DNA from: Chiloscyllium plagiosum
Taxonomy: Eukaryota
Direction of reading: 5' to 3'
NCBI RefSeq assembly: GCF_004010195.1
Contig: NC_057752.1
Location: forward strand, 6,212,044 to 6,276,043
DNA: 64,000 nt
Shown here piece by piece: positions 293 to 46,559 of the stretch (position 1 is its first letter; each line of letters starts with the position of its first letter). The notes beneath the pieces were generated by a model, which saw nothing but the letters and a program-made list of their open reading frames with translations, ran no database searches and had not been told where the DNA came from. The translations under genes were made by a program, and so were the position numbers.

Positions 293-3140
293 TAGAATCA
301 CAGAATCATAGAGATGTACAGCACGGAAATAGACCCTTCGGTCCAACATGTCCATGCCCGACCAAACACCCTAAATAAATCTAGTCCCATTTGCCAGCTT
401 TTGGTCCATATCCCTCTAAACCCTCCCTATTCATATATCTATCCAGATGCCTTCTAAATGTTGCAAATGTACCAGCCTCCACCACTTCCTCTGGCAGCTC
501 ATTCCATACATGCACCACCCTCTGTGTGAAAATGTTGCCCCTTATGTCCCTCTTATATCTGTCCCCCTTCACCTAAACCTATGCCCTCTAGTTCTGGACT
601 CCTCCAACCCAAGGAAAAGACCTTGTCTATTTATCCTATCCTTGCTCCTCATGATTTTATAAAGCTCTATGAGGTCACCCCTCAGCCTCCAATGCTCCAG
701 GGAAAAAAGCCCCAGCCTATTCAACCTCTCCCTATAGCTCAAATCCTCCAACCCTGGCAATATCCTTGTAAATCTTTTCTGAACACTTTCAAGTTTCACA
801 ACATCCTTCTGATAGCAGGAAGACCAGAATAGCACACAGTATTTCAAAAGTGGCCTAACCATGTCTTGTACAGCCGCAACATGACCTCCCAACCTCTGTA
901 CTCAATGCACTGACCAATAAAGGAAAGCATACCAAACACCTTCTTCACTATCCTATCTACCTGCCACTCCATTTTCTTGGAACTAAGAATCTGCACTCCA
1001 AGGTCTCTTATTCAGCAACACTCCCCAGGACCTTACCATTAAGTGTATAAGTCCTGCCAGATTTGCCTTTCCAAAATGCAGCACCGCCCATTTATCTGAA
1101 TTAAACTCCATCTGCCACTCCTCGGCCCATTGATCGAGATCCCATTTTACGCTAAGGTAACCTTCTTCACCGTCCACTACACCTCCAATTTTGGTGTCAT
1201 CTGCAAACTTACTAACCATACCTCCTATGTTCACATCCAAACCATTTATATAAATGACGAAAAGCAGTGGACCCAGCACAGATCCTTGTGGCACACTGTT
1301 GGGTACAGGCCTCCTGTTTGAAAAACAACCCTCCACCACCACCCTCTGTCTTCTACCATCGAGCCAGTTGTGTGTCCAAATAACTAGATCTCCCTGTATT
1401 CCATGTGATCTAACGTTGCTAACCAGTCCAACATGAGGAACCTTGTTAAATGCCTCACTGAAGTGCAAAGAGATCATGCCCACTGCTCTGCTCTTATCAA
1501 TCCACTTTGTTACTTCTTCAAAAACCTCAACCAAGTTCGTGAGACACAATTTCCCATGCATAAAGCCATGCTGAGTATCCCTAATCAGTCCTTGACTTTC
1601 CAAATACATGTAAATCTTGTTTCTCGGGATTCCCTCCAACAACTTGCCCACCACCGATGTCAGGCTCATCGGTCTATAGTCCCTGTCTTGTCCTTACCAC
1701 CTTTCTTAAATAGTGGCACCACGTACACCAATCTCCACTCTTCCGACACCTCACCTGTGACTATCGATTATTCAAATATCTCATCAAGGGGCCCAGCAGT
1801 CACTTCTCTAGCTTCCCACAGAGTTCTAGGGTATACTTGATCAGGTCCTGGGGATTTATCCATTTTTTTGCATTATACACTGTCCAGCACCTCCTCCTCT
1901 GTAATATGGACATTGTGCAAGGTGTCACCATCTATTTCCCCATATTCTATATCTTCCATATCCTTTTCCACAGAAAACACTGATGTAAAATACTCGTTTA
2001 GTATCTCCCCCATCTCCTGCAGCTCCACACATAGGCGGCCTTGCTGATCTTTAAGGGGCCCTATTCTCTCCCTAGTTGCCCTTTTGACTGTAATGTATTT
2101 GTACAATTTCTGTGGATTCCCCCCTAACCCTATTTGCCAAAGCTATCTCATGTCCCCTTTTTGCCCTCCTGATTTCCCTCTTAAGTTCACTCCTACTGCC
2201 TTTATATTCTTCGAAGGATTCACTTGATCTCGGCTGTCTGTATGTGACACATGCCTCTTTCTTTTTCTTGACCAAAAGCTCAATTTCTCTAGTTATTCAG
2301 CATTCCCTACACCTACCAGCCTTGCCCTTCACCCTAACAGGTACATGCGATCTCTGGACTCTTGCTACCTCATTTCTGAAGGCTTCCCATTTTACAGCCG
2401 TTCCTTTATCTGAAACATCCGCCCCAATCAACTTTTGGAAGTTCTTGCGTTATATCATCAAAATTGGCCTTCCTTCAATTTGGAACTTTAACTAGTCTAT
2501 CCTTTTCCATCACTACAGTCTGTTCTGATATAATGTGATAGTTCCATTCCCATGCAATCCCGTGTTACAAGGAAATCGCAAAATAGCAGTATCATTTAAA
2601 GCATGGGGCTGAAATCACGTTATAGCCAATACAGGTAAGGAAAGTTCATTTTCTACAAATAACGGTCTAAATTCTTCAAATGTGTTATCGTCAATTTGCG
2701 TTGAAGGAACACGCATTATAGCAGAACCGACTGTATTTTAAAACTAACAGTATTATGGTCACTGGCCCCACAGTGCTCCCCCACTGACACCTCAGTCACT
2801 TGCCCTGCCTTATTTCCCAAGAGTAGGTCAAGTTTTGCACCTTCTCTAGTAGGTACATCCCCATACTGAATCAGAAAATTTTCTTGTACACACTTAGAAA
2901 ATTCCTCTCCATCCAAGCCCTTAACACTATGGCAGTCCCAGACAATATTTGGAAAGCTAAAATCCCCTACCATTACCACCCTATTATTCTTACAGATAAC
3001 TGAGATTCTCCTTACAAATTTGTTTCTCAATTTCCTGCTGACTGTTGGGGGGGTCTATAATATAATCCCAATAAGGTGATCATGCCTTTCTGTTTTCTCA
3101 GTTCCACCCAACTATGTTCCCTGAACATACTCCCAGTTTA
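293..3140 (-). mobile_element. CR1-clade LINE (HER1-like), ORF2 endonuclease + RT, decayed, interrupted by a MITE at 2516-2733
   Basis: ORF 983-1669 has RT motifs (VPQGSVLGPLLFVIYIN, KFADDTK); 2716-3030 has endonuclease-like GDFSFPNIVW and LDLLL; C-terminal RRLRGDLI-type and VWNELPEEVV motifs; (TATGATTC)n-type 3' tail at ~293-310. Confidence 0.95.
2516..2733. mobile_element. Tc1/mariner-type (pogo/Tigger-like) MITE
   Basis: Imperfect TIRs cagtctgttctgatataatgtg ... cgcattatagcagaaccgactg flanked by TA on both sides; removing it restores CR1 sequence catcacta|ttttaaaac. Confidence 0.85.
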
Positions 3141-3461
3141 AGGTGATTAGTTCCAGGGTACACTCCTCAATAATGATGGCAGATGGGGTTTGTCACAAGA
3201 AACTTGTCAATGTCTTCCTGTGTTTCCTGTTCCTTGATCAAAGTGATATCTGCTGGTGGATATTGTTCAAAAACGCTGCTCCATTTTGCAAAGACAGAAG
3301 GAAGGTAGGTTCAACAGGTTATCATGGTGTGGGGAAGTGAGGGGCAGCACGGATAATTTCGACCAGCCTGTGGATTTCCATCAGTTGGCAGATGTGTGGG
3401 CGAGTGATGTCTATGAGCAAAGGAAACTGAGGAGTGGTGCTGAGCAGATTGTTCACTTACT

Positions 3462-4045
3462 TAATTTAGATAAATGTATGGTGTTGCATTTTGGTAGGTC
3501 AAACCAGGGCAGGACTTACAATGGTAGGGCCCTGGGGAGTGTTACAGAACAGAGATCTATGGGGACATGTTCATAGCTCCTTGAAAGTGGAGTCACAGGT
3601 AGACAGGGTGGTGAAGGTTGTGAAGGCAGCTTTTGGCATGCTTGCTGGAGCTTAGGAGACTGAGAGGCAACATTCATAGAGGTCTACCAAATCATGAGAG
3701 ACATAGATAAGGTCAATGGCCAACAGCTTTTCCCCCTGGTAGGGAAGTCTAAAACTAGAGGGCATGGGTTTAAGGTGAGAGGGGAGAGGCACAAAAGGGT
3801 CCAGAGGGGCAATTTTTCACACAGAGGATGGTGAGGGTCTGGAACAAGCTGCCAGAGGTAGTGGTAGAGGCGAATACAATTTTGGCATTTAAGAAACATT
3901 TAGACAGGTACATGGATGAGATGGGTATGGAGAGATATGGACCAAACTCAGGCAAATGGAACAAGATTAATTGTGAAAAGTGGGCAGCATGGACAAGTTG
4001 GGCCGACGTGTCTGTTTCCATGCCGTAAACTTCTAAGACTCTATA
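3462..4045 (+). mobile_element. CR1 LINE 3' fragment
   Basis: DKCMVLHFGR and RVWNKLPEVVVEA motifs plus CR1 3' UTR. Confidence 0.9.
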
Positions 4046-5029
4046 ATGCACATTCTTGCATTCAGTTGGGTGTCGACAAGATGTGTGTTTGATTACCTTT
4101 GCCAGGTAGATCAACAAGTGAAACAAAACAACTTCAAGTTCTGAGACCAAACTTCACCGCTTCCCTCATGCTACATATAAGCTAAAGCATAAATGGTGTA
4201 TCATCCACAAGGCCAGGTAACACAGGATGCAGGGAACTGGACCAGGTTTTAGTTCCACTTCTTCCATTGAGGCCTTGAACAAGCAACTTCTGAGTTCTGA
4301 GGCACAAACACTCCAAATGGAGACAACAAATGACCCACTTGCTTCACACTATAACTATGGGGATTAAGGATGAGATATAGCTGGTATTCTTCCTCCTCTA
4401 TTCCCCATGTCCCAAGAGGAGATGAATTTGAGGGTACTTTTTTCTTCTCCTTTACGCCTAGAACTGAATCGCAAAAGCTGTTGACAGTTAAACTTTTAAC
4501 GAAGGTCACCTCCTGCTTTCAGTATCTGACTGCCAATACAGATGGCATGGAGAATGGAAACATTATGCTCACTGAGTAGGCAGCTGCTGTTTGGAGGCTT
4601 TTTTTAAGCCTTTGCTGATCTCTGAAGTGTGCTCTAGCTAAAAATGGGACGGTTACTGCAAGATTGAATGAGATGGCAGCTCACTATGTAAGTTAAAAAT
4701 TAGACTTCTGCTTCCTGAGTCAAAAAGGTTTAGCTCTGGAAAGAAAGCTGTTGAAGAAAAAATGCCTTGACTTTCAGAACACACTTGGACCAATGCAGTA
4801 AACATCGTTTGGTAACTTAAAATTCAAAGTTGGATTCAAGTCTGCCTCTATTGTTAGCTGGATCAAAGGAACATGGGCTAATTGGAAAATCGCCAGCTTA
4901 ATTCAACTGTCCCTCCGTTGTGTTCTACCCACAGAGCAGGCCCGAACTCAAGTCTCACACGAGTTTCTTGAGTCATTAGCAAGAGAAGATGTCCTGATTA
5001 TTTAACTATGGGACAAAATAACAAATGAT

Positions 5030-5400
5030 AACTTGCATTTATATAATACATTTTACATAGTAAGACATCCCAAGATGCTTCACAGCAGCACAAACAAAAA
5101 CTTGTCACTGTGCCACATAAGAAAATATTAAGAGAGGTAAAGGATGGAGGAATTATGAAGTAACTTAAAAGAGGAGAGAGAGAGGCAGAGAGGATAGGGA
5201 TGGAAGGCCTCAGCAGAAGACATGGCTGCCGACATGGAGCAATGGAAACTGGGAATGCACAAGAGTTCAGATTTCAAACATTGTAGAGATCTCAGAGGGT
5301 TTTAGGGCTGGTGGAGATTACAGAGGTAGGAAGGGGCCAAGGGGAGAGATTTACGACATTGTCAGATCAGGAGCCCATGTTGGGCAGAAAGTGGAGATCA
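5030..5400 (-). mobile_element. L2-like LINE 3' end (old)
   Basis: Reverse strand ends ...tatataaatgcaagtt; similar to copies at 9940-10470, 29255-29690 and 57560-58050. Confidence 0.65.
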
Positions 5401-5914
5401 TCCATGATCTGACCGAATGGAAGAGTAGGTTTGAGTGGTCAATTGGCCTATAAATGCTCCTATTTTTAATGTGGGTACAGCAGTACACTCAGGCACAGGT
5501 TGCATTCAAAAAAGCAAATTGAATGCTGAAACTAAAATAGGTCAAGGAAGTCATCGAACTGGTCAGTTCCCAATTTGAATACTGTGCCCAGTTTTTCTCA
5601 AATGTATTTATTTACAGGATGTGAGCATCACTTGTGGGGTCAGAATTTATTACCTTCGAGGCCCTTGAGAAGATGGTAATGAACCACTTTCTCTAACCGT
5701 TGCAGTGCTTTGGTGAACGTTGAGTCTGGCTTCAGCCGCCAATAAATTGTTGGCCACACAGACACGTGTTAGTTTTACTGGAGACTGCTGCTGATTACTC
5801 AAGGCGATTCCTCTCACCCAACAACTGTCGAAGTAAAACAGCCCACATTTCTCCAAATGACCAAAGTAATCAGATTCACCAGTGAACAAATTACAGTAAG
5901 GATCAGGTTAACTG

Positions 5915-6250
5915 GTTTGGTGGTAATGGTTTGCTGGCTGAGTGATCCAGAGGCCCAGGCTAATGCTCTGGGGTCATGAATTCAAATCCCATCATGGATT
6001 TGAATTTAGTTAATAAATCTGAAATTGAAAGCTAATCTCAGTCATAATGACTGAGAAATTACCATTGAATGATGTAAGAATCCATCTGGCTCACTGATGT
6101 CTATTAGAGAATGGAAATCTGATCCAGTCTACTTACATGTGGTAGAAGTGTAGTTGATTCGTAAGTGCCCTTTTACCAAGCACTCAGTTCACGGGCAGTT
6201 AGGGATAGACAAAAAATGCTGGCTTTGCCTATATCCCATCAGAGAATAAA
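5915..6250 (+). mobile_element. tRNA-derived SINE (third family; 3' tail shared with a CR1/L2-group LINE)
   Basis: Box A/B-like head (ttcaaatccc), body catctggctcactgatgtc..., tail gggcagttagggatagacaaaaaatgctgg; paralogues at 14608-14915, 24325-24620 and 62005-62500. Confidence 0.75.
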
Positions 6251-6338
6251 TGATGCACTTTCAGGTTACCATGCTGGACAAGCAGAGTAGTGTAGAGAGT
6301 GAGCTTTAACTGCTTCCCTTCCCTTTTGCTATAAAACA

Positions 6339-6653
6339 TGGCGATGGCTCAGTGGTTAGCACTGCTGCCTCACAGCACCAGGGTCCCAGGTTCAATTCTA
6401 GCCTCATGCGACTATCTGTGTGGAGTTTGCACATTCTCCTGTGTCTGCGTGGGTTTCCTCCAGGTGCTCTGGTTTCCTCCCACAGTCCAAAGATGTGCAG
6501 GTTAGGTGAATTGACTGTGCTAAATTACCCATAGTGTTAGGTGCATTAGTCAGAGGGAAATGGGTCTGGGTGGGTTACTCTTCGGAGCATCGGTGTGGAC
6601 TTGGTGGGCCGAAGGGCCTGTTTCCACACTGTAGAGAATCTAATCTAATCTAA
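6339..6653 (+). mobile_element. HE1-like V-SINE
   Basis: tRNA head tggctcagtggttagcactgctgcctcacag...ggttcaattc, V-domain tgtgtggagtttgcacattctcc...ggtttcctcccacagtccaaagatgtgcagg, CR1-like tail, (AATCT)n end. Confidence 0.92.
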
Positions 6654-7282
6654 AACTGCTGACAGCCTGAATCTTAGCCAACTCTTCAGGCCAAATCGAG
6701 TCTGTAGTCACAGGTGTTAACTGTGTCCCACTGCCATTAATAAAAAAAAGTAAAAGCGAAAAAAAATGCAGAGATAGAGAAAGTGCAAAGGGAGAGAGAC
6801 TGATTGTATTGTTCTTTGAAAGAGCCAGAAGAGACTCAATGGGTTGAATGGCCTCAGTCTCTGCTGAACTATTCGATGATTTCCAATCAGGAGCTTGCCA
6901 CACGGGATTCCTGCTGCTTGAGTTTGACAGCCTGATATACAGTAAGTACGAAGTGACAATGGCTGGATTCTGCCCCAAAACTGAGTTCATTTCTTTTCCT
7001 CAGAAAAACAAAGCAGCTTTTTAATAAAATGTCCCTCCTGGTTTGAATACATTACATGGAAATTTTGATTTCCCACAAAAAGTCACATTGACATCTCCAT
7101 CAGGGAATCCTTGGGGAGAATCGGTTTCTGAAAAAGGGTTTACGTGCCTCCTTTGAAACTAAAATACAGGCATTTAAAAAAAAAATTGACAAACCTTAAA
7201 TTAGGAGCCAAGACCAATTGTATCGGACACTGCCAAGTTTCACACTTACAGGTTGCAGCTGCGGCTCAGTGGGTTGTGGCTG

Positions 7283-7585
7283 TAGCTCAGTGGGGGCGGC
7301 ACGGTGACTCAGTGGTTAGCACTGCAGCCTCACAGTGCCAGGGATCTGGGTTCGATTCCAGCTTTGGGTGACTGTCTGTGTGGAGTTTGCACATTCTCCC
7401 AGTGTCTGTGTGGGTTTCCTCTGGGTGTTCTGGTTTCCTCCCATAAGCCAATGATGTGCAGGTTAGGTGGATTAGCCAAGGGAAATGTCAGGTTACAGGG
7501 TATGGGTCTGGGTGGAATGCTCTTCAGAGGGTCAGTATGGACTCCATAGGCCAAATGTAGGGATCCATACTGTAGGGATTCTATT
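7283..7585 (+). mobile_element. HE1-like V-SINE inserted into the head of an older tRNA-SINE
   Basis: Same head and V-domain as 6339-6653; flanked by gctcagtgg upstream and gaatcagaaagttgtggattcaagtccc downstream. Confidence 0.88.
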
Positions 7586-8334
7586 CTTGCCTTTGAATCA
7601 GAAAGTTGTGGATTCAAGTCCCTCTTCATCTAAACCTATCAGCATATCTTTCTATTCTTTTTCACTCCTGCACTCAACCAGCCTCTTTGCCTATTCAGAA
7701 CATCTGCGTAATATGTTCAAAATGTGGGTGTGATTAAATTATTTTTCCCCCCTGTGCTCCTCATGTCAGGCTATTACTAAGAAAATCTCTAAAGGAACCA
7801 ATTATAAACAGCCGAACTGAGTGGCCTGGTCATCTTGTTGGCTGTAACTGATAGAGCAGTGAGATTTCCCGAACCTTTTGTTAGTACAAGTTTCAGAGTC
7901 TCGTTCTGCGTACTGAAATCACTTTCCATGTGAAGAGAAAGACAAAGAGAACACAAAAACGCAGCAAACTAAAATGTAACTGAGCCCAAAGATAGAGATT
8001 GTTGTAACACCACTTGCTCGTCACTGCTCAGCTTGTGGATTTTAACTGTATTTATGTCTCTGTCATGAGCAGCACCTCATGTAACTGAGCTGCTCGTACC
8101 CCACTTGTCCAAGATGAATCAGTTTGAGGAGCATTGATTAGATGGCAAGTAGATGGTTTCTAATGCAGGCATATGTTTTCTTGGATACAGCAAGGGCCCT
8201 TTCTCGAACACTCATGTAACACGAGTAGGAACAATAACACAGGGATTAACAACCATTTCTGATAACACCTGGTCACAGAAGATAGGTCTTTTTTTTGGTC
8301 TTTTTTTGCCATCAGATGCAGCCAAAGTACTTAC

Positions 8335-8379
8335 CAGTTCCAGGCTCCGTGGAGCTGGAGGTACACAGATGCTCATTAC
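8335..8379 (-). CDS. Candidate 45-nt internal exon of an unidentified host gene (VMSICVPPAPRSLEL in phase 0, or xNEHLCTSSSTEPGT in phase 1)
   Basis: Minus strand reads tgcgttttttgtgtttttcag|GTAATGAGC...GGAACTG|gtaagtac: consensus acceptor and donor, length a multiple of 3, unique-sequence context. Confidence 0.6.
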
Positions 8380-9939
8380 CTGAAAAACACAAAAAACGCA
8401 AAGGTCCGATCATTTGGAAATCAATTAACAATAAGAATTAGCTGGACAACAAGCTCATCCTGCTTATTCCAACAATTCCACATATCATTTCATCCCAGAT
8501 ACTGAACATGAACAGAGCCATGGGAAATATCCCCACCCTAACCAGTTAGCAGTATGCGAGTGTTCTTGTGTAATTGACTCTGTCCTTGCAGTTAGTCCCT
8601 TACTGAGTCAGTACGGGAGTGTTCTTGGGAAGAAAATAAAACAGCTGAGTTTTGGGACACAAATTGAAAACATTACTTGCTGCTCATTTCCTTTCCTCTT
8701 CGCTGAAATATAGTCCCATGGGTGATGGGATCCCTTCCAGGATCTAACTCAACTCTGAGTGCAGGCAGTATGTAATGGCAGACCGCACTGCCCAGGCCAT
8801 ACCAGCCAAGCTTCACCCATCCTCACCCAATGTGAGCAGGAGCAGGAAGCCTGGCTCACCACTCCTCTTTAATCCATGACACCAATTGCAGTCATAAGAC
8901 CTGTCACAACAAAGTCCTGAATGGATTTGAAATTCGGATCAGAATTTTAAAATTGCAGCATCACTTAACCAGGAATCACTGTAGGTCAGTGAGCACAAGG
9001 GTAAATAGGGGAGTGGAATTTGTAGCAAAATTTTGGATGATGTCAAGTTTATGGAGGATAGAATGTGGGAGATCTGCCAGGAGTGCATTGGAATAGTCAG
9101 GCCGAGACATAAGAGAGGCATGAATAGGGGTTACAGTAGCAGATGAGCTCAGACAGGGATGATGTCGGGGAATATCAGGTGGTAAAAGATTACCTTTGTA
9201 AGGATGCGAGTATGAGATTGGAGCTCATTTCAGGGTCAAATGTGACGCCATTCAATCATAATTGCTACTGCATATGGTGGGCACACATGTGCTGATGCAA
9301 TTTCCCTGCCATACATGATAGGTGGTACAAATGGAAACAATTATGTTGTGGCAATAGACCAACACGTGAAATTGTTAACTGTTTGAACAGCAGACTGAAG
9401 CAGCCCTATGACCTGATCCTGCCTAAAATCATGGGAGATTTTAAACTGAAATATCCAGGGATTGACACATTATATGTCCTGGTTCTGCTGATTTCCATTC
9501 ATGTGGGCCCAGCCATTGCCACGGGATGAGTGGAAGTGACACGCCTGGTATTGACATTCCCTGGGAAAGCTCGACACATACAGGCCTTGGGTCTTTCTCC
9601 TTTCACCTGTACCTCTCCACTCTGCAATCCTTCCACCAAGGATCACCAGTATGGTGTGGAAAGTAAGGCCATGATGTCTGGGAACAAGGTTGAGAGATGT
9701 AGCCAGCAAGCCCACCAAAGAGCAAGCTGTTAGCCAAGAAACAACACCTTGGTGCCACCAAGCTTTTGGAGAGGACAAACAATCAATCACGACCCACAGC
9801 ATGTTACGTATGAAGGAAGCTGTCACTGCCTTCTTACAATTCCAAACATATTGGGGAGGGGGGGTGGGGGGAAGGTGGGGGGGAGGTGTCAAAAGGCTGA
9901 CTCCTGCTCCAAGGAAATACATCCATATGTAAAACAAAG

Positions 9940-41549: not shown

Positions 41550-41846
41550 AGACCCCACCCATGTCAGAGGCAGAGTCAAAGGAACCTAACCTGGTGCGTT
41601 TTCACCAGGAGGAGGTACAAGGAAAAGAAGCAGCCTATGTAGGGAGTGATTGTAACGAGGTCAGTCAGGTAGACCTCATATAATATGAGCTCCCTGATTG
41701 GGGCTGATAATCTGATCCAATCAGGAAGCCCTGGCTGACTGATACACACAGGAGGTGTGTGTGTGTGTGTCATCCTTGTACCTCCTCCTGGTGAAAACGC
41801 ACCAGGTTAGGTTCCTTTGACTCTGCCTCTGACATGGGTGGGGTCT
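41550..41846. repeat. Perfect 74-bp inverted repeat (41550-41623 / 41773-41846)
   Basis: Direct comparison of the two arms shows no mismatch. Confidence 0.95.
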
Positions 41847-41849
41847 GTG

Positions 41850-42420
41850 AGAGGACCTGCCGCAGCTCGGCCCAGAGGACGCCTGAAGGCTCAATGCTCC
41901 CTTCACCTTAGAGGAGCTGACCGGCACCCTCGACCGGTTCTCGAGGGGCAAGTCCCCGGGGCTGGACGGGCTGACTCTGGAGTTCAGGGCGTTCTGGGAC
42001 GTCCTGGGGAGCGACTACGCACAGATCCTGGGGGAAGTGTCTAAATGCTGGAGAGCTGCCCCTTTCTTGGTGCAGGGCGGTCATCGTCCTGCTACCAAAG
42101 AAAGGGGACCTTCATTCTTTGAAGAACTGGCATCTGGTCTCCCTCCTCAGCACGGATTACAAAATCTTCGCCAGGGTGTTGTCTTCTCACCTGGCTTCTG
42201 TGCTGGCCCACATGATTCACCCGGACCAGTCCTACACGGTCCCGGGCCGGAAGATACACGACAACATCCACCTGGTCTGGGACCTGATCCATTTCTGTCG
42301 ACGGGCTGGTCTGCCGAGCGCCTTCTTGTCTCTCGACCAGGAGAAGGCGTTCGACAGGATTGATCACGAGTACCTGCTCGGGACTCTGCGGGCATTCGGG
42401 TTCGGGACGCTGTTTGTCGC
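41850..42420 (+). mobile_element. Tx1-clade non-LTR retrotransposon RT fragment
   Basis: KNWHLVSLLSTDYKIFARVL...IHPDQSYTVPGRKIHDNI...FLSLDQEKAFDRIDHEYL. Confidence 0.9.
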
Positions 42421-43155
42421 CCTGATGCCAGTCGCCCTGAGAGCCAGATGGTGGATATGCCGTTCTGAGCGCTGTCGCCCCGAGGAGGGGTAATCGGAAT
42501 GGGATGTCCTAGAGGTGGTTGAAAGGTGTCGGAGCAGCCGAGAGCCAGAAGGTGCGTGGGGCAGGCTGAGATCCGGAAGGCTTGTGGGCTACCTTGCACG
42601 CTGTCGTCCCTGGCGAAGGGGACGGGCTGTCCGGAAGGTGTGTCAGGATAGCCCACTAGCCGGACTGCGCATCGGGGTGGGTGAGAGCCCAATGGTATGT
42701 AGGGGCAGACCGAGAGCCGGAAGGCAGGTAGCCGTCCTCAGCGTATCACCACGGGCAGGTACCAGGGTGGGCTGACCCAGAGGTGGTCGAAAGGTGTCAG
42801 GGTGGACCGAGAACTGGAAGGGGCATGGGATGGACCGAGAGCCGGAAGGGGCGTAGGGGTGGGCTGCCTTAGAGTGGCTGGAAGGTGGGAGGGATGGGAG
42901 GCTTGCTGGGTCTGTATTGTCTGCACTTTCCTATGTAACAGGATTGTGTCTCATGTACAAATGTCATTGATGTCTTTTCATATTCAAAACTGGGACTTGG
43001 GGGTTTGTCCTCCTTTCCCTGTAAACTGGTTGAACGGTCGGGTTTGGGGCCTGGCTTTGCTGCTCCTCTCTTGTAAAATTGCTGTTGTATACAGCTGTAA
43101 ATGTTAACTGTTTTTCTGTAAACTCTCTTGTAATTGTTTAAAACAATAAAAAAAG
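42415..43155 (+). repeat. Block A: GC-rich putative Tx1 3' UTR ending AATAAA/A-tract; paralogue at 45440-46233
   Basis: Alignable by eye to 45440-46233; recurrent gagagccggaagg motif. Confidence 0.75.
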
Positions 43156-43661
43156 AGGAAACCTGATTCCTGAACTGGCTGAATTATTTAGTCAGTTTGT
43201 TAACTGGTATTCCCTTTTATTGAGGACTGACTTCTAAACTGGCTGATTTAAACAGTCAATGTGCGACAGGTGTAATTCAGCCTTCATTAGGAAACTGTTG
43301 TTTCCCTGGCTGGTTACAGCCTGTATGTTACTCTCTTCTCAGTCCTTTTCTCAAAGTAAAAAAAACATGTTGATTTGGTGGCAGGGTTTAGCCCTTGCAC
43401 TCTACTTTTTTGTTTTTTGAATGTGGTTTCACTTTTTGGTGTTTGGACTGAGCCCTTGTGAGAAAATACATCTTTCCAGATGAGCTGTTCCTGTGGGTAG
43501 GCCTGGTCCTTTGTGGGTGACTAGGCCTCTGTAAAGACTGAACACCTGTGTGTGCTGGGAGATGAGCAATTGTTGCATCCTGGAGTGGACCAAACCCCTG
43601 CAAGTTAACTGCAGCCTCACAATGTATTGTGTTCCTTTTGAGTGGGCCTAGTTGTCTCTGG
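43155..43661 (+). repeat. Block B: hairpin-rich segment; paralogue at 44580-45070
   Basis: aactggctgaa...gttaactggtattcc...ctctgtaaagactgaacacctgtgtgtgctggga shared between the two copies. Confidence 0.85.
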
Positions 43662-43814
43662 ATGTGTTGCTGGAAAAGCACAGCAGGTCAGGCAGCATCC
43701 AAGGAGCAGAATCGACGTTTCGAGCATGAGCCCTTCTTCGGGCTCGTGCCCGAAATGTCGATTCTCCTGCTCCTTGGATGCTGCCTGACCTGCTGCGCTT
43801 TTCCAGCAACACAT
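43662..43814. mobile_element. 153-bp near-perfect palindrome made of two head-to-head Penelope pLTR ends
   Basis: atgtgttgctggaaaagcacagcagg...gagccc ttcttc gggctc...cctgctgcgcttttccagcaacacat. Confidence 0.9.
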
Positions 43815-43820
43815 TTTCAG

Positions 43821-44590
43821 CTCTTGTCAGTATGAGGTAACCAGGAGCTGGAGGGTCGATGACTACCCAGGGGAAAGCATGCTTGGGGGGGGCTCTGTTA
43901 GTACGCTGGGGGCTAGGCAGTATAACAGCATACTCCATAGGAAAGCTGGTCAGGGGAGAGGCTGCCAATACGTGAGCTGGCTGGGGGCCGGAGGGTCGAT
44001 GACCGGCCTGGAGGAAATCAGGCCAGGAGGAGCCTGTCAGTATGTGGGGCGGATGGGGCCAAGCAACTGATACCATCCTCGCAGGAAAGCTGGTTTAGAG
44101 CAGGCTGGTCAGTACGTAGGAAGGCTGAGCTAGGCAGCTGACAGCAGCCCGTAAGAAGGCCAACCACAGGAGGACCGGTCGGTACGCAGGGAGAGTGGGA
44201 GCTGGACAGCCAATAGTTGGTCCATAGGAATGCTGGCCGGGAGGAAGTGTCAGTCAGTACACGGGGAGGCCAGGTGCTGAAAGGCAGGCAGCCTAATTTT
44301 AGGAAGGCAGGTTGGGAGTGGTTGGTTAGTATGCGGGGTGACTGGGAGACAGTGGCCGACCGCTGTGTAGGAGGAAAGCAGCTTGGGAATGTTAGTCAGT
44401 ATGCAGGGTGGGTGGAGACCAGAAGGCCAACAACCAGCTCGTAGGAAAGCAGCCCGGGTAGTCCGGTCAGTACACTGGGTGACTGGGAGCTGGGTGGTCG
44501 ATTACCAGTCTGGAGGAAAGCAGGCCTGGGGAGGGTCAGTCAGTACGCAGGGCGGGTGGAGACCGGAAGGCCAACTTGTAGGGGAAAACA
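43821..44590 (+). repeat. Cryptic tandem array, 11 units of ~71 bp
   Basis: GTCAGTAYR-like motif at about 43826, 43897, 43964, 44036, 44108, 44178, 44253, 44325, 44395, 44466 and 44539, with an AGGAAAGC-like motif in each unit. Confidence 0.85.
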
Positions 44591-46559
44591 AATTCCAAAA
44601 CTGGCTGAACTATATAGCCAGTTTTGTTAACTGGTATTCCTTTTTATTGAGGACTGATTTCTAAACTGCCTGATCTACACAGTGTGTTATTATTAGGGAA
44701 CTATTGTTTCACTGGCTGGTGACAGCCTGTGTGTTACTCTTTTCTTTTACTTTGAGAAAAGGACAATACTGATTTTTGTGGTAGGGCTTAGCCCTTACAA
44801 AAAAAAAGCAAACTAGAGTGTATGTATTTTCACTTTTTTGGTGTCTGGGCTGAGCCCCTGTGAGAAAATGCACCTTTCCAGATGGACTGTTCCTCTGTGG
44901 GTAGGCCTAGCCCTCTTTGGGGAGACCAGGCCTCTGTAAAGACTGAACACCTGTGTGTGCTGGGAGGTGAGCATTTGCTGCCTGTTGGAGTGAACCATCC
45001 CCTGTGAGTTAACTGCACCTTTTTACAATGTACTGTGTTCCTGTGAATTGGCCTGGTTCTCTGTGGATAAACCAGGCCTCTATGGAGACTGAACATCTGT
45101 GTGTGTGCTGTGGGGTGTGTTTGCTGCCTTCAGGAGTGGACTCTGCATACTGGGGTGGGTACTGCCTTTGCTTGTGGACTCTAACAATGCATTCTGTAAA
45201 CTGGAGTGAACCCTGTTCCTGGAAATGGATTCTGCATTCTGAAGAGAACTGTTTATGGTAATGGACTCTGTGTACCAGAAAGGACTCTATTTGTTGGTAA
45301 TTGACTCTGTCTTGTTGCGTGTTGGGTTTATCACCTGCACTGTCTTATGTCCCTGGATCTAGCAGACCTTACTGTGAGTTGGGAGGCTCAGAGGTCATCC
45401 GGAGAGCTGGAAGATGGGTAGGTACCCCTGAAGGCCAGGAGGTGGGTCGGTTGCCCTGATGCCAGTTGTCTAAGAGTCAGAAAGTAGTTAGGCTGTTCTG
45501 AGCGCTTTCGACATGAGAAGGGGTATTCGGGACAGGCTGTCCTAGAGGTAGTCAGAAGGTGTCGGAGCGGCCAAGATCCAGAAGGTGCATAGGGGCAGAC
45601 CAAGATCCGGAAGGCTTGTGGGCTGTCCTGCGCGCTGTCATCCCAGGGAAGGGGACGGGCCATCCTAGAGGTGGCCGGAAAGTGTCCGGGCAGTCCACAG
45701 GCCAAATGGCGCATCGGGTGGGCGAGAGCCAGATGGTATGTAAAGGCAAACCAAGAGCCAGAAGGTGGTTAGGCCATCCTTAGCGCTGTCACCCTGGGTA
45801 GATACTGAGGAGGCCTGAAGGCACGAGAGGGTGGTTAGGGAAGCTGTAAGGTGGGTAGGCCATCCTGATTGCTATCGTCCTGAGGGGGTTTGGGGAAACA
45901 GGACTGGCTGTCCTAGAGGTGGCCAGAAGGGGTGTAGGGGCGGGGTGCTTTTAAGTGGCCGGAAGGTAGGAGGGGCAGGTGGTTTGCTGGGTTGCCAGGG
46001 GCGTTTGTGGTACGTGCAGTTTTATTGTTCGGTTTATTGGACTGTCTGTGATTGCATTTACTGTTTCCTTTTTGAGATGACAAGGTGGGGTTCGAGGTTC
46101 GTCCTAGTTTCCCTGTGAACTGGTTGTACGGTGGGGTTTGGGGTCTGGTTTTGCCCCATTCCCCTGTAAATTGCTGTTTCTTGTTCCTTTGTTACCTGTT
46201 TGTAATTTGTTCTGATTAATAAAATTTAAGAAAACAGGAGTGTCAAACTTCTTGTTCACTCTGGGAGCTGGCTCTGAAGTATCTGGTTCAGTGTCAATGA
46301 CTCCCCATGTGTAAATAAAGGGGGACTTGGTAACGGGACACTGGCCTCCTGTGGATTATTTCATTTTCCTAACAGTGAGGGCTCATTACCACCTTCTCCA
46401 GGACAATTACGGATGAGGAATAAATGCTGACCTCACCAGTGACACTCATGTCCCATTAAAAGGTTTTTTTAACCTTGGACTGGGAGCAACTCACCCTGCA
46501 AAGTGGCACTCCCAGTACCTCATAAGCATTTGTAATTGTACACAAACCCAATGACTTCT

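Follow-up and report, generated by a model that had tools for sequence, protein, structure and literature searches.

A degenerate tandem array in the tail of a Tx1-type LINE insertion as a possible row of bulged-G RNA hairpins

The window (the whole stretch of DNA analysed, 64 kb in length) contains a degenerate tandem array which is real and has probably been under selection. The two conserved words of its units are likely to be the two strands of a single sarcin-ricin (bulged-G, loop E) internal loop in the sense RNA, with GAA opposite AGUA. We read the array as a selected row of ten predicted bulged-G hairpins which would dock a protein on the RNA of the element that carries it; we put the probability of this reading at roughly 0.55.

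The array occupies the following position:

43826 to 44579, + strand: degenerate tandem array of 10 full units and a 5'-cut first unit, period 67-75 nt

The first word, GTCAGTAY-like, is present in 11 copies between 43826 and 44546 at intervals of 67-75 nt, exactly as the initial annotation had described it. The copies start at 43826, 43897, 43964, 44036, 44108, 44178, 44253, 44325, 44395, 44466 and 44539; successive spacings are 71, 67, 72, 72, 70, 75, 72, 70, 71 and 73 nt. The second word, AGGAAAGC-like, lies 23-27 nt 5' of copies 2-11 (start to start). A distance of about 20-25 nt had been proposed for it, and the word is found before all ten copies. The remainder of each unit was described as strongly diverged; pairwise identity of the units is 48-73% against 47±4% in shuffled units (divergence about 40%). 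Autocorrelation within the array is highest at lag 71; Tandem Repeats Finder detects only the last 2.5 units. When a profile of the unit is compared with the window, there are 10 strong matches and 1 weak match in the array and none elsewhere below E 0.6.

Conservation of the words exceeds decay, within the limits of the simulated models. The best two 8-letter words have mean matches of 0.925 and 0.90 across the units, and none of 440 simulations of arrays that decay to an equal mean identity reaches both values. The simulated histories were star-like or branching, with CpG decay switched on or off; rates were uniform apart from CpG, and gene conversion was left out. This comparison is alignment-free since MAFFT misaligned the second word. 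The array could be an ordinary G-rich minisatellite of a LINE tail in unselected decay, with chance or uneven mutation behind the kept words and a palindromic ancestor as the source of the pairing. The absence of unit-specific covariation, the unremarkable local folding energy, the degenerate internal repeats that also make up the adjoining blocks A and B, and CpG decay as an explanation of the C/T at the end of the first word are all in its favour. However, conservation no better than that of a neutral minisatellite is not what the 440 simulations give, and decay from a complementary ancestor does not reproduce the asymmetry of the stems described below; we attach only a small probability to this explanation.

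The letters that do not vary in the ten-unit alignment include GAA of the second word and UA of AGUA in the first word, and only 2 of 70 cells are changed at the seven core letters. Judged by sequence, the upper tHS A.G pair of the sarcin-ricin motif can form in 10/10 units, as can the tWH U.A pair. The bulged G is present in 9/10 units, with A in the other one; the tHH A.A pair is present in 9/10, and related copies have A in the tenth. A in place of the bulged G is given as a rare but known variant in the relevant passages of PMC8450098. The lower tSH pair is of a listed type in seven units (C.A in 6, U.A in 1) and is C.G, C.U or U.G in the other 3; this pair is the variable position of the motif in the same passages of PMC8450098. 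The pairs flanking the core are present in 9/10 units on each side. The ten predicted hairpins are:

43866 to 43910, + strand: predicted bulged-G hairpin 1, canonical core
43934 to 43977, + strand: predicted hairpin 2, bulged A replaces G; the letter of relatives at 43963 restores a stem pair
44007 to 44049, + strand: predicted hairpin 3, canonical core
44078 to 44121, + strand: predicted hairpin 4, canonical core
44148 to 44191, + strand: predicted hairpin 5, G.A replaces A.A and the closing pair is broken; relatives have A at 44181
44221 to 44266, + strand: predicted hairpin 6, canonical core
44296 to 44338, + strand: predicted hairpin 7, canonical core; relatives have A at 44306
44367 to 44408, + strand: predicted hairpin 8, canonical core, weak stems
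44438 to 44479, + strand: predicted hairpin 9, canonical core
44509 to 44552, + strand: predicted hairpin 10, canonical core

A strict descriptor of the motif matches 7/10 units and 1 other site on both strands of the 64-kb window. A loose hairpin of this type occurs in 1.4-2.6% of random 72-nt stretches; in the array, the core is also the best-kept part. The sarcin-ricin reading is post hoc: the conserved letters were seen first, and about ten RNA types were tried by eye, among them tRNA, 5S, U2, the branch point and three ribozymes.

The register of the stems is dictated by the motif and not chosen, so the flanking cells can be tested. In this register 85/120 flanking cells pair (70.8%), a count that overstates the evidence since the units share ancestry; when the cells are slid by 1-3 columns, 37.5-48.3% pair. 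The register ranks first of 34 for the lower stem and second of 34 for the upper stem. A rival register, which is shifted by four and runs the upper arm straight onto GTCAGT, pairs 48/60 cells against 45/60; it would dissolve the sarcin-ricin loop and offers no reason for the invariant U or for the A that faces A. When AGUA is paired with the GAA of the next unit, 82/120 cells pair against 85/120 within the unit. When units are folded singly by energy, both stems form in about 6/10, and units 7 and 8 are weak. Compensatory covariation in the flanking helices was not found among the ten units.

Substitutions in the stems differ from those elsewhere. G>A changes make up 12/99 in stem columns and 38/167 in the rest of the unit (p 0.035; column permutation p 0.031), while C>T changes in stem columns (23/77) exceed stem G>A (p 0.004); outside the stems, C>T and G>A are in balance. 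C>T leaves a G-U pair on + RNA and G>A breaks the pair; this bias therefore points to the + strand. Neutral runs from the same complementary ancestor (n=1000) give the G>A deficit in 1.0-1.6% and the C>T asymmetry in 0-0.5%. All 12 pairs of the register are counted here; hand-picked stem columns gave p 0.002 and are less fair. In two half-sets of five units, the G>A deficit falls short of significance (p 0.61 and 0.085).

The bias towards the + strand bears on the possibility that the antisense strand is the working one. In that case, each unit would offer a TACTRAC branch-point word, a pyrimidine tract and often an AG, and the array would be a row of splice-factor sites like the MIAT lncRNA, the repeats of which reportedly bind SF1 and QKI. 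TACTRAC occurs 9 times on the minus strand of the array where 0.1 is expected, the distance from branch word to AG is about 27-35 nt, and Rfam gives a weak minus-strand match to MIAT exon 5 (RF01876; E 3.1, 12.9 bits where the cut-off is 75). However, a pyrimidine tract would tolerate transitions, and the three GAA columns show 0 in 30 cells; both invariant letters of the first word are outside the branch-point core, for which a consensus was assumed in this comparison. The position of AG wanders, and several units have an AG between branch word and tract. Together with the direction of the wobble bias, this makes an antisense function rather improbable.

The words may also be transcription-factor sites in DNA, which would make the array a repeated enhancer boosting the LTR promoter that the element inserts into. 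GGAA, which we take to be an ETS/IRF-type site (and TGAC a half-site), occurs 13 times in the array against 4.9 expected and 7 times in block B1 against 3.1; the LTR-like flank holds the similar words GGTCAGTCAGG and CAGGAAGC, and the variable spacing suits DNA sites. An enhancer predicts neither complementary flanks in one register nor a strand-specific G-U bias, and is improbable.

The four stems quoted in the initial annotation are present at their positions. Their sequence was said to be specific to each unit; halves swapped between units pair equally well (p 0.69-0.87), which contradicts this. A covariation check had been proposed as well, and its score is reached by 447 of 500 column shuffles, so covariation does not rise above shuffles. 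The ten GAA..AGTA segments fold no better than their shuffles (z -0.9 to +1.5). The entire array on the + strand has a folding z of -2.5 (40 shuffles), and 120-nt windows within it range from -1.0 to +0.7. RNAalifold gives one weak 4-pair hairpin with an unfavourable covariation term, and the bulged-G hairpin is not predicted. For this weak hairpin, which surrounds a YRAY word, the half-swap test did not find unit specificity either (p 0.22). Of the earlier proposal of a repeated + strand RNA module in a Tx1-type insertion, the selected module is supported and the covarying stems of individual units are not.

A small self-cleaving ribozyme of unknown type, repeated in tandem, had been suggested too. 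Processing could serve stacked, co-transcribed insertions, and GAA/AGUA in the order of the array resembles what we take to be loop B of the hairpin ribozyme. Against this, no ribozyme is matched in Rfam up to E 10, inspection by eye finds neither a conserved loop A nor the catalytic A of loop B, and cleavage between ORF2 and the tail would split the coding part from the template end. By eye, the array also lacks the cores that we assume for hammerhead, HDV-type and hairpin ribozymes. A ribozyme is extremely improbable. Rfam searches with 8 kb and with 776 nt (E up to 10) return only chance-level matches; for tRNA identity, ARAGORN finds 0 genes and there is no RF00005 match. A scan for bacterial promoters and terminators is at chance level.

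The initial annotation is probably correct that the repeat is non-coding, but its argument from the period is incomplete: the distance from the first to the second word is a multiple of 3 in 8/10 units. This would be explained if the minus strand carried the remains of a 24-codon protein repeat (A-F-L ... V-L-T). The minus frame has 0 stops and a pN/pS of 0.60 in 5 gap-free units, and the array has a weak period-3 signal (p 0.02-0.03). However, the frame is broken in 7/10 distances from the second to the first word, and a relative 83% alike has the same 70 and 75 spacings without gaps. Third positions in both words include invariant ones, a 125-residue minus frame matches 0 proteins among 1.84 billion, and a codon signal is absent from the block pairs A1/A2 and B1/B2 (p 0.39 and 0.98). 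Such a repeat is very improbable.

Descent of the unit from the 3' part of 5S rRNA (SINE3-like), followed by tandem multiplication, is compatible with the bulged-G reading. In vertebrate-type 5S genes, GGAAG lies 24 nt before GTTAGTAC, which is the spacing of the array. The 5S comparison loci were confirmed with RF00001 in 9/10 tested. The upstream flank resembles that of 4 vertebrate-type copies (p 0.006-0.015), summed local scores against 5S reach z 2.0-3.6, and the unit model gives weak matches (7-9 bits) in 5S loci on the GGAAG-GTTAGTAC stretch. The downstream flank is not significant (p 0.14-0.39), however. Among 1818 natural blocks, 0.9-17% attain the score of 5S; for the four vertebrate-type copies the share is 1-7%. 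Once the 8-mer is masked, p 0.05 is reached by only 1/10 5S copies; the array has no RF00001 match, and GAA in 5S pairs with a partner on its downstream side, which the array has not conserved there. We give 5S descent a slight probability.

Pattern scans were also made in other data. Ten loci were found in metagenomes, none alike to the 64-kb window by BLAST. Three of them (L001:2775-3083, L009 and L010) are a bacterial 15-nt repeat and were rejected as chance pattern matches; this repeat can encode a pentapeptide-like repeat. Many prokaryote genome bins (L013-L024, L025, L027, L069 and others) hold tandem arrays of animal-type 5S rRNA, which is host contamination. The viral scan gave 1 locus with a single weak match, and 0 viral matches to the 5S word.

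The distance from the array to the tail of its element, which lies downstream, is 1.6-2.4 kb. Both are part of a 4.5-kb insertion (about 41750 to 46231) within an LTR-like repeat; ACAGGAG is present at both ends of the insertion. The parts of the insertion are:

41851 to 42421, + strand: frameshifted Tx1-clade RT fragment (Pfam RVT_1 E 7e-16, tblastn span)
42416 to 43153, + strand: tail block B1, fused to the RT fragment; ends in AATAAA and an A run
43154 to 43663, + strand: block A1, AT-rich, nearly CpG-free, 76% alike to A2
43662 to 43823, unstranded: fold-back piece of a very abundant repeat, truncates the 5' end of the array
44580 to 45141, + strand: block A2, begins where an 11th AGGAAA-like word would be
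45142 to 45449, + strand: linker with repeated GGACTC words; relatives join the linker to block B
45450 to 46231, + strand: tail block B2, first 370 nt 76% alike to B1; AATAAA and A-rich tail
46232 to 46240, + strand: target word AAACAGGAG; ACAGGAG also at 41748, the other end of the insertion

The RT fragment has 67% identity to the Xenopus Tx1 (Tx1L) 149 kDa protein. It links a Tx1-type RT to the tail family, since it is fused to B1 and B2 is 76% alike to B1; with the poly(A)-type end, this bears out the placement of the array in a Tx1-associated insertion. Neither an A-rich end nor a target word separates the array from B2, so the array, A2, linker and B2 have most simply moved as a single + strand RNA. 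A comparison of 120 Tx1-like proteins with 42430 to 46240 gave no match. The fold-back piece contains inverted repeats I2 and I3, has 6 further matches in the 64-kb window and leaves loose ends at 43821-43824.

Several features of the neighbouring DNA are recorded here in their own right. The 5' junction of the insertion has a perfect 74-nt inverted copy of flanking DNA (41550-41623 / 41773-41846). The LTR-like flank at 41655-41745 carries a dyad, GTCAGTCAGG ... CCTGGCTGAC, with words common to block A and the array. At the 5' end of A1 (43145-43162), an AGGA word matches the target word and the second word of the array; the junction may have used this microhomology. A 24-nt stretch is inverted between A1 (43342-43365) and A2 (44741-44764) with 96% complementarity, a micro-inversion between family members.

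Composition differs between the blocks. The CpG ratio is 0-0.07 in A1, A2 and the linker (43154-43661, 44580-45400) and 0.42-0.69 in the array, B blocks and RT. Block A has short strong hairpins (z -3 to -4). The B blocks (42431-42920, 45401-46000) consist of degenerate repeats with lag 28, rich in GAAGGT-type words; these resemble + strand 5' splice sites (17 against 7.6 expected in B1, 18 against 10.4 in B2). In the linker, 45142-45330 holds six GGACTC-like words (GGACT 3 against 0.9 expected), and enrichment of m6A words (DRACH) in block A and linker is weak (p 0.04-0.29, uncorrected). In the two copies each of A1/A2 and B1/B2, stem selection was not found; substitution rates are alike at paired and unpaired positions.

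Related copies were sought by comparing 43790-46260 with four public sequencing runs at 80% likeness. The array is multi-copy in three related species, and the runs point to tens of copies or more. Three organisms have the same locus, differing at 12 of 733 nt, 39 of 644 and 37 of 488, and the contig with 39 differences spans the junction with the fold-back piece; the insertion is therefore old. Other copies are seen as well: at array positions, a single alternative letter recurs in as many as 35-40 contigs. Two related contigs are 82-83% alike and extend in register over four units, one of them gap-free, so the differences between units were already present in active elements. Among the 40 of 517 difference rows listed, 9 differences of relatives fall in the array and none breaks a predicted pair; within the same 40 rows, relatives restore letters of the motif at 44181 and 44306 and restore or strengthen predicted pairs at 43963, 44217 and 44297.

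Depth is uneven along the element. In one run, summed depth, which is no copy number, is 40-1308 in the array and 950-9300 in A2; it climbs several-fold at 44600. This step fits reverse transcription that often stopped at the edge of the array, where A1 begins. None of the contigs listed bridges array and A2 in another copy. Given this and the depth step at 44600, the link of array and Tx1 across the family is inferred from this locus. Single-cell poly(A) libraries mostly capture 3' ends; in one such RNA run (2 in 100 reads), depth is 0-0.9 in the array, up to 12 in A2 and 5-7 near the end of B2.

According to the bulged-G reading, a Tx1-type LINE would carry the ten diverged repeats in its non-coding 3' region. 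Each unit would fold from a lower stem, in which YYY faces GGG, through a G-Y pair and the internal loop of GAA and AGUA to a short upper stem that begins with GC paired to GU and is capped by a G-rich loop. A single ancestral hairpin may have been multiplied in tandem; through many rounds of retrotransposition of master elements, the copies would then have lost their identity except for the loop core and the ability of the stems to pair. The array would act as a multivalent platform on which an RNA-binding protein needed by the RNA of the element could dock. A host factor akin to TFIIIA or to ribosomal protein L5 is a candidate partner, which might stabilise or export the long unspliced RNA.

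Such a host factor would be the most likely partner by analogy with 5S rRNA and viroid loop E, with the ORF1 or ORF2 protein of the element itself ranked lower; it is the first guess because sarcin-ricin loops are protein-recognition points and a viroid loop of this type binds RPL5. The fuller proposal, in which a vertebrate LINE has evolved an array of rRNA mimics, possibly from a captured piece of 5S rRNA, that recruits a TFIIIA/L5-type factor in the manner of a viroid, is unlikely as a whole.

Stabilisation, export and packaging of RNA are poorly known in LINEs besides L1 and R2. A tenfold repeat of one 3D motif would give an exact handle, with seven letters per unit that can be mutated. 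If the bulged-G reading is true, degenerate tandem blocks in LINE tails, which are usually masked as junk, can be selected RNA modules, and their signal can lie in non-Watson-Crick pairs, which folding and covariation programs miss. The sarcin-ricin motif, the targeting habit of Tx1 and single 3' stem-loops of LINEs are already known; the tandem array may be new. In the part of the literature that we covered, no report of a bulged-G/loop E array in a retrotransposon was found.

The closest known structure is the sarcin-ricin motif of rRNA. Passages of PMC8450098 describe the upper tHS A.G, tWH U.A, bulged G and tHH A.A that the predicted hairpins share, as well as the variable lower tSH pair and flanking pairs in which G-U or C.A is allowed. 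The instances in these passages are single within a large RNA, whereas the array has ten predicted copies head to tail with the GAA strand first. The loop E/SRD of potato spindle tuber viroid is a second parallel: in passages of PMC6633198, a parasitic RNA has a sarcin-ricin-type loop that binds host RPL5, and TFIIIA-7ZF is needed for its replication. In the viroid, a circular plant RNA carries a single such loop, whereas the prediction here is of a tandem array in an animal LINE.

Repeated words and tandem blocks in other RNAs are more distant parallels. The VNTR of SVA is a G-rich variable tandem block in a LINE-mobilised RNA. The array has the same G-rich tandem design, but its units are far more diverged and contain two protected words. 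MIAT repeats (RF01876) have branch-point-like words in common with the minus strand of the array, and the match is far below the family cut-off.

Among mobile elements, target-specific members of the Tx1 clade (Xenopus Tx1L, and crocodilian Tx1-8_Crp and Tx1-4_AMi in LTR elements) appear in passages of PMC4494074; here too, the insertion is stacked in an LTR-like repeat. The passages of PMC4494074 on Tx1 elements describe no structured tail repeat array, and the word 'UTR' is absent from the paper; SVA is named as a composite retroposon in that source. The 3' stem-loops of stringent-type LINEs and SINEs, as presented in passages of PMC3747384, likewise combine conserved loop letters with variable stem letters. 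These stem-loops are single and located at the extreme 3' end, whereas the array is tenfold and stands well upstream of the tail.
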